Positions 542-17,839 of a stretch of DNA of 30,818 nucleotides are shown here, piece after piece (position 1 is the first letter of the stretch; every line of letters starts with the position of its first letter). The notes beneath the pieces were generated by a model. It saw nothing but the letters and a program-made list of their open reading frames with translations. It was not told where the DNA came from and did not search any database. The translations under genes were made by a program, and so were the position numbers. The stretch spans positions 1 to 30,818 of the IMG/VR virus record IMGVR_UViG_2565956711_000013, one strand, 5' to 3'. Source of the DNA: a virus. Lineage: Duplodnaviria > Heunggongvirae > Uroviricota > Caudoviricetes.

Positions 542-1579
542 TTAACGCTTATCCGCCACCAGTTTGAGCGCGTGTTCCAGCACATTAATGTCTGCACCCG
601 CTTTATGGGCGTTTTCACTTAAATAACGCCGCCACTGCCGCGCGCCAGGAATACCCTGGAACAAGCCCAACATATGCCGGGTAATATGACCGAGATACGT
701 CCCCTGGCTGAGTTCACGCTCAATGTACGGATACATGGCGCGCACTACCGCCACCGGATCGGCATCGATATCCGAGGAACCAAAGATCTCCCGGTCTACC
801 GCCGCCAGAATACCCGGATTCTGATACGCCTCGCGCCCGACCATCACGCCATCCATATGTTGCAGGTGTGCTTTGGCCTCTTCCAGCGACTTGATACCAC
901 CGTTAATCGACATTGTCAGATGCGGAAAGTCACGCTTCAGTTGATACACACGCGGATAATCGAGCGGCGGGATCTCACGGTTTTCTTTCGGACTTAACCC
1001 CGAAAGCCAGGCTTTACGTGCATGGATGATGAACATCTCACACTCGCCTTTGCCGGAAACGGTGTTGATGAAATCGCAGAGAAATTCATAGCTGTCCTGG
1101 TCGTCGATGCCAATACGCGTTTTCACCGTCACCGGAATCGACACCACATCGCGCATCGCTTTCACGCAGTCGGCAACCAGCTGCGCATTACCCATCAGAC
1201 ACGCACCAAACATGCCGTTCTGCACCCGGTCAGACGGGCAGCCGACATTCAGGTTGATCTCATCATATCCACGCGCTTCTGCCAGCTTCGCACACTGCGC
1301 CAGCGCCGCCGGATCGCTACCGCCGAGTTGCAACGCTACCGGATGTTCTTCTTCACTATACGCCAGGTAATCACCTTTACCGTGAATAATCGCCCCTGTA
1401 GTTACCATTTCAGTATACAGCAACGTATTGCGGGAAAGCAGACGCAAGAAATAGCGGCAATGTCTGTCCGTCCAGTCGAGCATAGGAGCAATGCTAAACC
1501 GAGAACTCCAGTAAGCGCCAGTTTTTTCAGGCATCACGCTGGTTTGATTAGTTTTCTGTGTTTCAGGATTATCGTGCAT
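542..1579 (-). CDS. dusA: tRNA-dihydrouridine synthase A (host gene; its 5' end abuts the prophage integrase)
   Basis: 345-aa ORF with Dus-family TIM-barrel features as I recall them ([17 protein letters not shown] motif); the nearer internal Met (MPEKTG) may be the true start. Confidence 0.9.
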
Positions 1580-1612
1580 TTTTGAACATTTCAGGCTATT
1601 TTTCTCGCGTTA

Positions 1613-1647
1613 GGTTCCCGCACAGGTTCCCACGTTTTATGGGAACC
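1613..1647 (+). promoter_or_regulatory. Cluster of 7-bp repeats in the integrase leader (two direct, one inverted); possible Int arm site or operator
   Basis: ggttccc at 1613-1619 and 1625-1631, and its reverse complement gggaacc at 1641-1647 (9-nt loop), just upstream of the int RBS (gagg 1657-1660) and ATG 1668. Confidence 0.35.
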
Positions 1648-1667
1648 CGAAATAACGAGGTCGTGTA

Positions 1668-2826: not shown

Positions 2827-3075
2827 ATGCGTATTGAGATCTGCATAGCCAAAGAAAAAATGACTAAAATGCCAAACGGTGCTGTGGATGCGTTAAAGGA
2901 AGAATTAACCCGACGCATCAGTAAACGTTATGACGATGTAGAGGTGATCGTAAAAGCCACCAGCAACGATGGGCTTTCTGTTACACGCACCGCAGATAAA
3001 GATTCTGCAAAAACTTTTGTTCAGGAGACTCTGAAAGATACCTGGGAATCTGCTGACGAGTGGTTTGTTCACTAA
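2827..3075 (+). CDS. DinI-like SOS-inducible protein, 82 aa
   Basis: Small acidic protein ([11 protein letters not shown]...[10 protein letters not shown]) resembling the DinI family; preceded by SOS boxes and followed by a terminator. Confidence 0.8.
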
Positions 3076-3180: not shown

Positions 3181-3449
3181 ATATAATCCCGACTGGTCCA
3201 GTTTCCAGACAACCAGGGTGTCTCCTGCCGATAGTGTCCTGAGCAGTTTTTTAAGCCCCGGCCTTTCGGACTTTGTACCGCTTATCTTGTCTTCAAAAAT
3301 CAGCTAGCATCCTGCGCAGTTCAGTGCATTACGTTGCAAATCGGTGTTCTGGTCATTTGTTAATACGCGAACATAGCCAATCCCCCCTCATCTGACAAAA
3401 ACGATAGTGACACTATTGGCTCGTCATTTCTTAATTTTAACGCTAATTA

Positions 3450-3809
3450 CTAAGCTGGAACTGGTGGCCAACTAAATCCAGGAATAATAGCTTCTTCCGC
3501 TGGAATAGATTTAATCTCACGTTTATAGGCCATCCATTTACTCAGACTTTCTTTGTCGCGTTCACTGATATCGCCCAACATCAATTCTGTCCTCCAGTCA
3601 GCAGTAATCATGTCTGCAGAGGCAAGCAGCTCGGCACGTGTTCGCTCAACTGAAGTGACCAGTTCATCGTGAGTTGGTGGAGGGTTTACTATCGCCAGCG
3701 CTTCGGTTTCAGAAATAGCAATTAGCTCTGGCTTGATAAAATCATCCTCACTTCCGTCCTCTGCATATGCATAAACGTTATTGTTCTCATCTTTAAAGTA
3801 CTTCATCAT
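3450..3809 (-). CDS. Tail fiber assembly protein
   Basis: 119-aa ORF directly downstream of the tail fiber gene with a 4-bp overlap; sequence resembles tail fiber assembly chaperones. Confidence 0.75.
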
Positions 3810-4819
3810 TTTAATTCAATCCACTCGATTACATTTCCAAAACTTAACTCAACCATGTAATTGGCACCAGGAGGAACAATAGCACAGGGATATACCCAAG
3901 AAGAAACACCGGCGTAATTTGGAGTATTTCCACCTGCGGCCATAACTCCATTAACTTTTATTTGCACTTCTCCTGATGCCGGAAGATTTACTTTCAAAGA
4001 GATAACCCATGGTTGTTTCGACGTATTTGTGTACGTGATTCCAGGATACTTATCTGTGACGATCTGATACGTTTGATCTATACCGATTAACTGAGACGCT
4101 GTTGCTAACGCGACAACACTGTCACTCTGTGCATGTCGCATATATGGTTTTGTTGCATCATTTCTACTAAAACCAATGACACTGGCTCCATCACCAGTGA
4201 CCATATCATCCAACTCTAGGTATTGGATAACATCATGAATACTAGACTTACCGATGATATCTCGTCCTACCTTCGTAAAATCGGTAAGGTCTGCACTATT
4301 TTCATTGTTGAAATATGGTAGTTTATTAGTTGTTGCGATCAAATTCGCAAGAGCACTCAAAGTGTCATTCGAGTCCTGCTTTTCAGCTAAAGCAGTGCTT
4401 AATTCCTCTTGTGTAGTCAACAAAATTACAGTGTCTGTATCTTGATGCCTGAAATACGGTTTATTTATAACACCTTTACTAAAACCAATGACATTGACTC
4501 CATCACCAATAACAGCATTGGATATTCCAAGGTTTTCGAGAGCTGTTTTCACCGTGCCATCCGATTTGATATCGCCAAACGGATTCTTGCGGCTTAACAG
4601 CAGCGCACGAAGCGCGGTAAGCAGCTGGTCGTGCCGCGCCTTCTCCAGACTGGCACCGGAGGCCTCCACCACGCTGCAAAGTTCTTCCTGCAACATGTCA
4701 AAGTAGTCATCATCCAGATCGGTGGCAGGCGTGCCGGTCTGGGGGTTACCACGGGTAAAACCGTTCTTACCCGCGCCGAACTTATCCTTCTGCGCGGTTT
4801 TCGTGTCTATACGATGCAT
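3806..4819 (-). CDS. Tail fiber protein
   Basis: 337 aa; N-terminal region resembles the conserved N-terminus of P2/Mu-type tail fibers; AT-richer C-terminal part with an internal 312-bp duplication. Confidence 0.75.
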
Positions 4820-16609: not shown

Positions 16610-17839
16610 TCAACCACCAACGCTACCTTTCCCCACCAGCGCTTTAATGGCAGAGGTGTCTTCCAGGATACAGTCAAAACGATGGAAGGCCAGAAAACCA
16701 GTCTGATCATATTCCGCGTAACGCTCAACCAGGCGTTTAAGAATCATGTATCGCACACGACGGATAATGAAGCGATCAAAGTCACCACAGAACATGAATT
16801 TTTTACCCGCCCCGATATCATCAATTTCCTGATCAATGACATACGGTACATTCAACACTGAAGCAGGTGCCACACCAACAATATCCGGCAACCATAAAGG
16901 GCGTCCCTGACCGTCTTCCATCTCACTGATCAGTTTCAGCGTATTATCGTTAAACGCCAGGCGGAATTTCGGTCCGCGACGATATGCAGGATCAATGCTG
17001 TGTTTCAGAGCCAGAATTTCCTGCCACTTCACCGCATTTGCCGCGGCAGTCTGTGTTGTGCCGGTCACAGATGCTGCCAGCCCTTTGGGTTGTTTAGGCG
17101 TACCAGCCCCCGTCCCCTGAATCAGATAACGGGCTTCACCACGACCAATACGTTCAGCAATGCGACGGGCAAGATAAGCTTCCATATCGATCGCACTGTC
17201 CTGCAGCAACTCATTAGACACACGAATTATTTTCGATGTCATTTTGAGCGCCCCAAGGCTTCCCATACCGAAATCGGTGTCTTCTTCACCGGCTTCTTCA
17301 TTTTCGCCCAGCAGAACACCAACTTCGGAAGTACCATCAGCTGTTGCCCACTCCATAGTGCGACCATCAGAAGTGGTAAGAATCTGCGCCACACTGGCGA
17401 TGCCACCGTAGGATTTCATCTTCTCAACAACTTTCGCCAGGAATGTTTCTGGTACGGTATATCCGCCCTTTTCATCCTGAGCTACGCCCTGGGCACGAAG
17501 TTCACGCAACGCCTTTCGTTCTTCTGATGTCAGCTCACTGGCACCGTGACGCATCCACTTATCAAAAACCTGATCTCGTTTCTCATCCTGTTGCGGATTG
17601 TTTTCCGGATCAAGATTCTGACGCTGCTCTTCCTCATTGCTTTCAATGTACGCCTGATCCTGACGACGCAGTTCTTCTTCGCGTGCAATTCGTTCATCAA
17701 GCGCTTCCAGTTCGGATTTTGCTTTGTTCCACTCAGTGCGCTGCTCTTCCGTCCATGCGTTATCACCAATTTTTTCATTCAGGGCGCGCATGTCAGTTGC
17801 GATAGTATTACGTTTCTGTTTCAGTTCATGCAGTTTCAT
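16610..17839 (-). CDS. Major capsid protein, HK97-like
   Basis: 409 aa; N-terminal coiled-coil-like delta-domain then capsid domain; follows the prohead protease as in HK97-type head modules. Confidence 0.85.
   Translation of the reverse strand: MKLHELKQKRNTIATDMRALNEKIGDNAWTEEQRTEWNKAKSELEALDERIAREEELRRQDQAYIESNEEEQRQNLDPENNPQQDEKRDQVFDKWMRHGASELTSEERKALRELRAQGVAQDEKGGYTVPETFLAKVVEKMKSYGGIASVAQILTTSDGRTMEWATADGTSEVGVLLGENEEAGEEDTDFGMGSLGALKMTSKIIRVSNELLQDSAIDMEAYLARRIAERIGRGEARYLIQGTGAGTPKQPKGLAASVTGTTQTAAANAVKWQEILALKHSIDPAYRRGPKFRLAFNDNTLKLISEMEDGQGRPLWLPDIVGVAPASVLNVPYVIDQEIDDIGAGKKFMFCGDFDRFIIRRVRYMILKRLVERYAEYDQTGFLAFHRFDCILEDTSAIKALVGKGSVGG

Follow-up and report, generated by a model that had tools for sequence, protein, structure and literature searches.

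A repeat cluster in the dusA–int spacer as the likely int-proximal arm sites of a dusA-specific prophage integrase

Introduction

The attP of phage lambda comprises P1, P2, core, P'1, P'2 and P'3, with the arm sites bound by the N-terminal domain of the integrase (Int), together with IHF and Xis. For KplE1 (CPS-53) IntS/TorI and for phage P4 Int, the int promoter overlaps the att arm sites and is repressed by Int. RDF sites are usually confined to one arm, as seen for lambda Xis, P2 Cox and L5 Xis.

The dusA-associated integrase (DAI) family was defined by Farrugia et al. 2015 (PMC4482086). Phage 1720a-02 has been shown by experiment to integrate into dusA, using a seven-base core inside TCCAGTCGAGCATGGGAGC, and to form attP circles; its Int was assigned by the authors to the dusA-specific integrase family (PMC6328086). 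RdfN was shown to be the RDF of dusA elements and is encoded across attP from int, while, in a related element, the int/dusA' region was found to provide both a promoter for dusA and an active Pint (PMC8409611). Junction, core, replaced dusA 5' end and RDF have thus already been published. The new part is the arm-site repeats: no description of arm sites for dusA-specific integrases was found in the literature searched, which misses most subscription journals, and neither PMC4482086 nor PMC8409611 contains the word 'arm'.

Here, we analyse 30,818 nucleotides of a caudoviral record (IMG/VR IMGVR_UViG_2565956711_000013, positions 1 to 30,818; the window). A preliminary description, made from the sequence alone, had drawn attention to a prophage junction at dusA and to a cluster of short repeats beside the integrase start.

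Results

The window begins with a dusA attachment junction

By sequence comparison, the left end of the window is the attL of a dusA-specific integrase prophage in E. coli, of a known and very common kind. The window is 100% identical to E. coli CE0021a, and at least 80% of a 1.4-kb dusA'-int-dinI query is present in 726 of 5426 complete E. coli genomes. The int/attP module is also 97–99% identical in the free phages mEp460, SKA5, Lys8385Vzw, phiSTEC1575-Stx2k and 1720a-02, and matches to the phage records begin at window positions 1474–1479, varying by record. On the same comparison the prophage is roughly 39.7 kb in size, inserted at the dusA 5' end by its dusA-specific tyrosine integrase.

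The dusA gene occupies positions 542–1579 on the minus strand (345 codons; Pfam Dus, E=2e-104; start codon CAT at 1577–1579), and int positions 1668–2765 on the plus strand (365 aa; Pfam Phage_integrase, E=1e-20). The divergent arrangement with 88 bp of intergenic DNA (1580–1667), as initially described, is exact. The proposal that the integrase belongs to the dusA-targeting family also stands, as the protein is 99.7% identical to 1720a-02 Int, which integrates into dusA at a 7-base core. The locus displays the features by which the DAI family is recognised: the tyrosine recombinase gene adjoins, and is divergent from, the dusA 5' end; the insertion lies in a conserved stretch of the dusA 5' region, with semiconserved direct repeats at both ends; the dusA frame is restored with the element's own 5' end to give an intact 345-codon ORF; the integrase is homologous to the described family; and a gene for a PrtN-domain RDF (RdfN) lies across attP from int. 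Excision as a circle with attP is experimentally established for the near-identical module of 1720a-02 (PMC6328086).

A replacement dusA 5' end supplied by the prophage had been suggested, and alignment to prophage-free K-12 DusA bears this out with an identity break between residues 32 and 33. Residues 33–345 are identical in 313 of 313 positions, compared to 22 of 32 for residues 1–32. At the DNA level, the host-derived part matches K-12 at 927/942 positions and the phage-derived part at 78/96 (81%). Hence, as far as alignment can tell, codons 1–32 (1484–1579, minus strand) are phage-derived and the gene is host-derived from the core onward; the same 5' end lies beside int in free phages mEp460 and SKA5. 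The phage brings its own version of these 32 codons together with the DNA upstream of them, so that insertion leaves a complete hybrid dusA. This 5' end doubles as the long spacer of the int-proximal attP arm.

The preliminary description had left the core repeat unidentified, with the right-hand attachment site placed outside the window. Alignment with the unoccupied K-12 attB and with the CE0021a sequence beyond the window now reveals it as TCGAGCAT (1476–1483; dusA codons 33–35, Met-Leu-Asp). In a three-way alignment, attL tracks attB (K-12) to the left of TCGAGCAT and attP (mEp460) to the right; the crossover therefore falls within 1476–1483. The core lies inside the published 1720a-02 core region TCCAGTCGAGCATGGGAGC (PMC6328086), and recurs at the attR of CE0021a (locus L004, 17342–17349), 39.7 kb away and indeed beyond the window. 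The native dusA 5' end is kept at attR (104/105 identical to K-12), where it is annotated as a truncated pseudogene abutting TCGAGCAT; the attR arm reads GGTTCCCAATAGGCTCCCA. The flanking dusA-like repeat spans ~100 bp at both junctions and is 81% identical.

Upstream of the 'empty' K-12 dusA (L003 ~3575–3600), the sequence GGGGTACTATACCATA resembles phage int codons 2–6; read on the dusA strand it is TGGTATAGT, an extended -10-like sequence. The possibility that this resemblance (GGTACTATACCATA) marks an int 5' remnant was rejected by a tblastn search of the 362-bp yjbM-dusA spacer with 79 Int N-termini, which gave 18.5 bits versus 17.6 ± 1.6 for shuffled sequence, with 54 of 200 shuffles scoring as well. 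A further repeat, TTTCAGG, occurs as three direct copies at 1525, 1561 and 1589, spanning the phage-derived dusA 5' end and the spacer. It is not conserved in phages YeP1 or EKP1 and is partly inherited from dusA-like sequence, and is probably due to chance.

Lambdoid siphoviruses and Stx phages also carry the int-attP-dinI module that belongs here to a contractile-tail phage with a P27-type terminase, indicating module exchange. Several other features of the prophage were observed. LexA-box-like sequences at 2768–2783 (CTGTTTATCCATACAG) and 2796–2811 (CTGTATACAAACACAG) lie between the int stop codon and a DinI-like gene (2827–3075), and the phage dinI homologue is probably SOS-controlled. Just beyond dinI (~3187–3381 and 4523–4819), the CE0021a annotation lists a recombinase pseudogene interrupted by an internal stop, as well as a truncated stfP tail-fibre gene; the two resemble the decayed remains of a tail-fibre inversion module, and in phage SKA5 the corresponding place is occupied by an intact DNA invertase. 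Towards the other end of the window, five iteron-like repeats with a 15-bp period (CAGATTTTGACGGGT and variants) at 30590–30664 (also 30513–30571) lie inside a helix-turn-helix gene (30021–30803, minus strand), and are probably a phage replication origin within an initiator gene.

The spacer contains three conserved copies of a short motif

Three copies of a 7-bp motif, two direct and one inverted, had been noted in the spacer, and are found as GGTTCCC at 1613–1619 (+), 1625–1631 (+) and 1641–1647 (−). We refer to the corresponding candidate arm-type sites as P'1 (GGTTCCCG, 1613–1620, plus strand), P'2 (GGTTCCCA, 1625–1632, plus strand) and P'3 (minus strand, 1640–1647, reading TGGGAACC on the plus strand). 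P'1 and P'2 form a direct pair 12 bp apart (AGGTTCCC), and are followed by a likely int ribosome-binding site (GAGG, 1657–1660, plus strand), placed by sequence reading 7 nt before the ATG.

By itself, the cluster is modestly unusual. GGTTCCC occurs 7 times in the window versus 3.55 expected, and a 7-mer present three times arises in 577 of 100,000 spacer shuffles (~0.6%). The strength of the case comes from comparison with other sequences. Among 36 haplotypes from an IMG/VR scan, 7 positions vary within 1613–1647, all of them among the 14 non-motif positions and none among the 21 motif positions, a split with a probability of ~5e-4 by hand calculation. P'1 and P'2 are invariant among these close haplotypes. 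The scan, aimed at diverse relatives, returned almost only near-identical E. coli prophages and was of use for this haplotype comparison only. In relatives from Escherichia sp., Kosakonia, Pluralibacter and Phytobacter, P'2 reads GGTCCCCA or GGCTCCCA.

These relatives also bear on the hairpin that the preliminary description drew from the motif copies. P'2 and P'3 (GGTTCCCA/TGGGAACC) are indeed perfect inverted copies over 8 bp, separated by a loop of 7 nt, and in the Escherichia sp. locus L089 both halves have changed together (GGTCCCCA/TGGGGACC), as would be expected if a stem-loop at 1625–1632/1640–1647, be it an RNA leader, a DNA cruciform or a terminator, were the selected feature. However, the stem carries 1–2 mismatches in L090 (GGCTCCCA/TGGGAACC) and in L091 and L138 (both GGCTCCCA/TGGGGACC), that is in 3 of 5 close lineages, with each copy still conforming to GGYYCCCA. 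The predicted fold of the leader is no better than that of shuffled sequences (z = -0.29), and there is neither a T tract nor a terminator call. Furthermore, a hairpin leaves P'1 and the far-arm copies described below unexplained, and most of the family lacks the inverted copy. We thus consider selection for a stem-loop very improbable: the inverted repeat is present, but as a hairpin it is not conserved. As the two halves drift apart while each remains GGYYCCCA, the inverted repeat is better read as two protein sites in opposite orientation.

The motif recurs on the opposite attP arm and changes with the phage lineage

The comparison with attP (mEp460) and attR (CE0021a) reveals two more copies on the far arm, GGTTCCCA and GGCTCCCA, 11 bp apart and located 61 and 50 bp beyond the core. 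Five GGYTCCC copies thus fall within ~230 bp, three on the int-side arm and two on the far arm, and all are unrelated to the core sequence. With 2 + 3 arm sites, the attP is lambda-like.

Phages with Int proteins 34–69% identical share this layout and have dusA-like cores, but the word itself differs between lineages. It is AGCACCCC in Yersinia YeP1, GTACACC in 'Elizabethkingia' EKP1, AGTCACCC in Pseudoalteromonas C5a, GTGCTCC in Marinobacter AS1, AGTACGYA in a Vibrio PM2-like element, GGTGTGC in Ralstonia NK-7 and TTGCTAC in both Burkholderia BcepIL02 and Pseudomonas E220, with GTAC-type words in a Rhizobium phage. Across the lineages, the words include GGTTCCC, AGCACCC, GTACACC, GGACACC, GTACCCC, GTGCTCC, TTGCTAC and GGTGTGC.

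For 10 phage attPs, the word was chosen from the int-side arm only and then searched for in the far arm. At ≤1 mismatch, the word was matched in the phage's own far arm in 10 of 10 attPs. The total of 19 hits was not attained in any of 2000 shuffles of the arms, which gave 2.24 ± 1.5 hits. Exact matches averaged 1.2 per own arm, compared to 0.023 when the arm came from a phage with a different word (non-zero in 2 of 88 such comparisons). All 10 attPs bear repeats on both arms that are unrelated to the core, as in a lambda-type attP, with lineage-specific motifs. The distances are also shared: counting back from the core, the far-arm copies begin at 61 and 50 bp (alternatively 81 and 70 bp), and counting back from the int start codon, the int-side copies begin at ~55, 43 and 27 bp.

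The int-side layout was surveyed in 77 genome loci from as many species, with Int 53–99% identical. A direct pair 10–13 bp apart is present in the last 80 bp before int in 72 of these loci; the pair is exact in 53 and spaced 11 or 12 bp in 67. In 1958 control windows, a comparable direct pair was seen in 18.6% and an exact pair in 1.7%. The inverted third copy is found at 23 of the 77 loci, as well as in YeP1, EKP1, AS1, BcepIL02, NK-7 and E220, while many marine relatives have the direct pair alone, nearer the int start codon.

A chance origin in an AT/GC-mixed spacer is next to negligible in light of these data. The shuffling result given above, together with 15 triple-7-mer entries (some overlapping) in the 30.8-kb window, indicates that such triplets do arise, but chance does not account for a layout conserved over loci with 53–99% identical integrases, a motif that covaries in both arms and motif positions that are invariant in close haplotypes.

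The far-arm copies are equally informative for the operator role that the preliminary description offered as an alternative. The cluster occupies the sole intergenic DNA available to both divergent promoters, int and dusA', and in many relatives AT-rich -10-like hexamers (TTTTAT, TAATAT, TAATTT and similar) lie between P'2 and P'3. A related element has both a supplied dusA promoter and an active Pint in this region (PMC8409611). Nevertheless, an operator for Int or another regulator, with no role in recombination architecture, leaves the fixed-distance copies on the far arm unexplained, given that this arm is 39.7 kb from int in the lysogen. A scan of 1400–2000 found no consensus sigma-70 promoter (and no terminator), and in many of the marine relatives the direct pair is all that is left, at a shorter distance from the start codon. 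As the main role of the cluster, an operator is therefore unlikely, though the same sites may serve as one in a second role. The published text on sRNA-17 of mEp460-type prophages (PMC7719688) gives no link to the int/dusA' spacer.

A candidate IHF site was also observed. An IHF-like sequence (1 mismatch to WATCAANNNNTTR) occurs in the far arm of mEp460 (L001 2468–2480), YeP1 and EKP1 (L005 and L006, same offset), at a distance of 33 bp before the core, although each alone would be found in 7–13% of shuffles; it is present too at the CE0021a attR (L004 ~17370–17382). BcepIL02 and NK-7 have an IHF-like site 36 bp inside the other arm. The long int-side arm of the enteric phages yielded no such site.

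Other observations were made among the relatives. Klebsiella phage Kp4884-1 (L169; Int 52% identical) has two-arm repeats at its record ends, with CAGCACCCCA twice before int and AGGACCCCA and AGAACCCCA at the opposite end. It was considered as an additional attP and left out of the matrix since it lacks a dusA-like core; its integrase branch seems to use another target site. Marine relatives (L132, L133, L141 and L151) carry a second repeat family of 10-bp repeats between the dusA' start and the arm sites, as does Pseudoalteromonas phage C5a (L007 ~1398–1427) with three tandem copies of the 10-bp TGAATTGCC. Phage EKP1 (L006) has an enterobacterial-type dusA 5' end and core, a DinI gene and an Int 67% identical to the E. 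coli protein, and its Elizabethkingia host label looks doubtful.

Int is favoured over RdfN as the protein that reads the sites

An AlphaFold model of Int (79-sequence alignment; mean pLDDT 87.6) contains a small N-terminal unit (residues 2–58) of three strands (2–10, 16–26 and 29–38) and a helix (41–58), predicted with pLDDT ~90. It is followed by a weak linker, a helical core-binding domain and the catalytic domain, and adopts the same predicted fold when modelled alone (pLDDT 89). The best Foldseek hits for the full model are Tn1549 Int and full-length lambda Int, with alignments to full-length lambda chains extending over 365–370 columns versus ~290 for the 75–356 constructs. The N-domain alone gave nothing significant in Foldseek (best E 0.07), and residues 1–80 gave no arm-binding domain match in Pfam at E up to 10 or in a PDB profile search.

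Mutual information with the arm word across 60 integrases, a measure that is confounded by phylogeny, is highest for Int residues 30 (strand 3) and 23 (strand 2). Residue 30 is Tyr in 28 of 28 integrases with GCACCCC, His in 6 of 8 with GTACACC and Ile with GGTTCCC. Residues 1–65 contain 12 of the top 30 columns compared to 5.3 expected, again subject to confounding by phylogeny.

An excisionase-like gene had been reported as absent near int in the window, and the RDF gene is indeed found at the far end of the prophage. A PF11112 (PrtN-family, RdfN-type) gene lies beside attR in CE0021a (L004 18573–18845; E=2.9e-23), 8.8 kb beyond the window end, and PF11112 genes are also present in mEp460, YeP1 and EKP1 (E about 1e-23). 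Between attR and rdfN (L004 17491–18539) are a gene for a Panacea-domain (SocA-like antitoxin) protein and an ORF of no assigned family. Different genes fill this slot in mEp460 and SKA5, and it can thus be regarded as variable cargo.

RdfN, a PrtN-family winged-helix protein, might itself bind the repeats, bending the arms for excision through phased sites. RDFs commonly bind phased direct repeats, RdfN co-occurs with the integrase family in phages (107 records versus 124) and it diverges between phages with different motifs (52–54% identity). However, 2 + 3 sites on both arms resemble lambda Int arm sites rather than the usual one-arm RDF sites, and the protein columns most strongly associated with the motif fall in the Int N-domain. 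A separation of the two candidates is provided by the trio BcepIL02, E220 and NK-7, of which the first two share the same word. Their Int N-domains are 67% identical, versus 55% and 52% for the pairs with NK-7, while they have the lowest identity of the trio in the rest of Int (48%). For RdfN, BcepIL02/E220 identity is 63%, compared to 66% for BcepIL02/NK-7 and 58% for the remaining pair. In this trio, the motif thus follows the Int N-domain and not RdfN. Phages with Int but without RdfN were also sought to separate the readers, and none was usable, as RdfN is present in BcepIL02 and E220 too. RdfN also diverges with the motif, so that it is this one three-phage comparison that separates it from Int as the reader; we regard RdfN binding as improbable.

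Together, the two-arm layout and the BcepIL02/E220/NK-7 trio favour Int as the reader. The GGTTCCC cluster is hence most likely the int-proximal set of Int arm sites, and we infer that Int itself, rather than another protein, binds the five sites. An Int arm site had been one of the roles first put forward for the repeats, and it is now supported by the two-arm layout, the conservation across the family and the change of motif between lineages.

Discussion

We propose that the dusA-specific Int recombines phage attP with dusA, with strand exchange occurring within TCGAGCAT. The C-terminal domains of Int would act at the core, with the small N-domain bridging to the arm sites. In the lysogen, the three-site arm would stay with int at attL and the two-site arm would go to attR with rdfN; excision would require RdfN, the PrtN-family factor encoded at the attR end. 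Int occupancy of the P' sites probably damps int transcription, and perhaps that of dusA', because these sites share the 88-bp region with the int promoter and leader and probably the dusA' promoter. Junction anatomy, the core, the five sites, their conservation and their covariation are established here. The regulatory side effect is suggested by geometry and by analogy with KplE1 IntS and P4 Int, as the scan called no consensus promoter in the spacer. Taken as a whole, a scheme in which attL with crossover in TCGAGCAT, GGTTCCC copies as Int arm sites in a 2 + 3 attP, RdfN-dependent excision and damping of int by Int are combined appears to us quite likely.

A broader version is put forward tentatively, and we consider it somewhat doubtful. 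In this version, phages from alpha- to gammaproteobacteria would share one fixed two-arm geometry throughout the family, the arm word would covary with Int residues ~23 and 30, and the enteric three-site arm would control both int and dusA. If true, arm specificity would follow a simple, readable code of a 7–8-bp word and a few residues of the Int sheet, and Int occupancy would link the recombination state of the prophage to expression of the host tRNA-modification enzyme DusA.

Arm sites are to be expected for a lambda-type integrase, and the interest of the map is thus practical rather than conceptual. It describes the attP of dusA-specific integrases as an 8-bp core flanked by 2 + 3 arm sites whose distances are fixed, with a candidate IHF site and with the RDF gene across from int. 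This helps to define exact prophage ends and to design minimal attP cassettes for the dusA integrase, also in the case of the Stx phages that rely on this enzyme. The map further predicts orthogonal integrase/attP pairs, and yields a concrete hypothesis for the regulation of int, and possibly of the rebuilt dusA, in lysogens.

The closest relatives of the locus are 1720a-02/Phi-stx2dact (PMC6328086) and mEp460, with which it shares the integrase (module 97–99.7% identical), the dusA 5' target and the core region, and likewise the replacement dusA 5' end and the divergence of int from dusA. The prophage body differs, being that of a contractile-tail phage with an HK97-type head and not of a lambdoid siphovirus or Stx phage; the int-attP module is therefore mosaic. 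The Vibrio dusA elements with RdfN (Durand et al. 2021, PMC8409611) likewise encode a PrtN-domain RDF across attP from int. The Vibrio-group loci surveyed here are distant relatives (Int ~55% identical) in which the direct pair (e.g. AGTACGCA/AGTACGTA) is closer to the start codon and the inverted third copy is missing. The plasmid activator that governs rdfN of the Vibrio elements (PMC8409611) is not relevant here.

The int start adjoins att, with the arm sites intervening between att and the start codon of int, as in KplE1 IntS and P4 Int. Those systems belong to other integrase and RDF families, and autoregulation is proposed here by analogy.

The proposed scheme would share the heterobivalent logic of lambda; the 2 + 3 distribution of sites over the two arms, the spacing of neighbouring sites by roughly one helical turn and the lack of relation between arm motif and core are common to both. 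The Int N-domain is predicted as a small three-strand-plus-helix unit like that of lambda, albeit without sequence similarity to it, and in the enteric members a candidate IHF site is located between the arm sites and the core. Unlike in lambda, one site is inverted, and the RDF is of the PrtN type and encoded on the other side of attP. Because int faces away from att, the three-site arm also overlaps the int promoter/leader region, again unlike in lambda. The long int-side arm is unusual in that the 129-bp spacer between core and P' codes for the first 32 residues of a host enzyme, a further difference from lambda.
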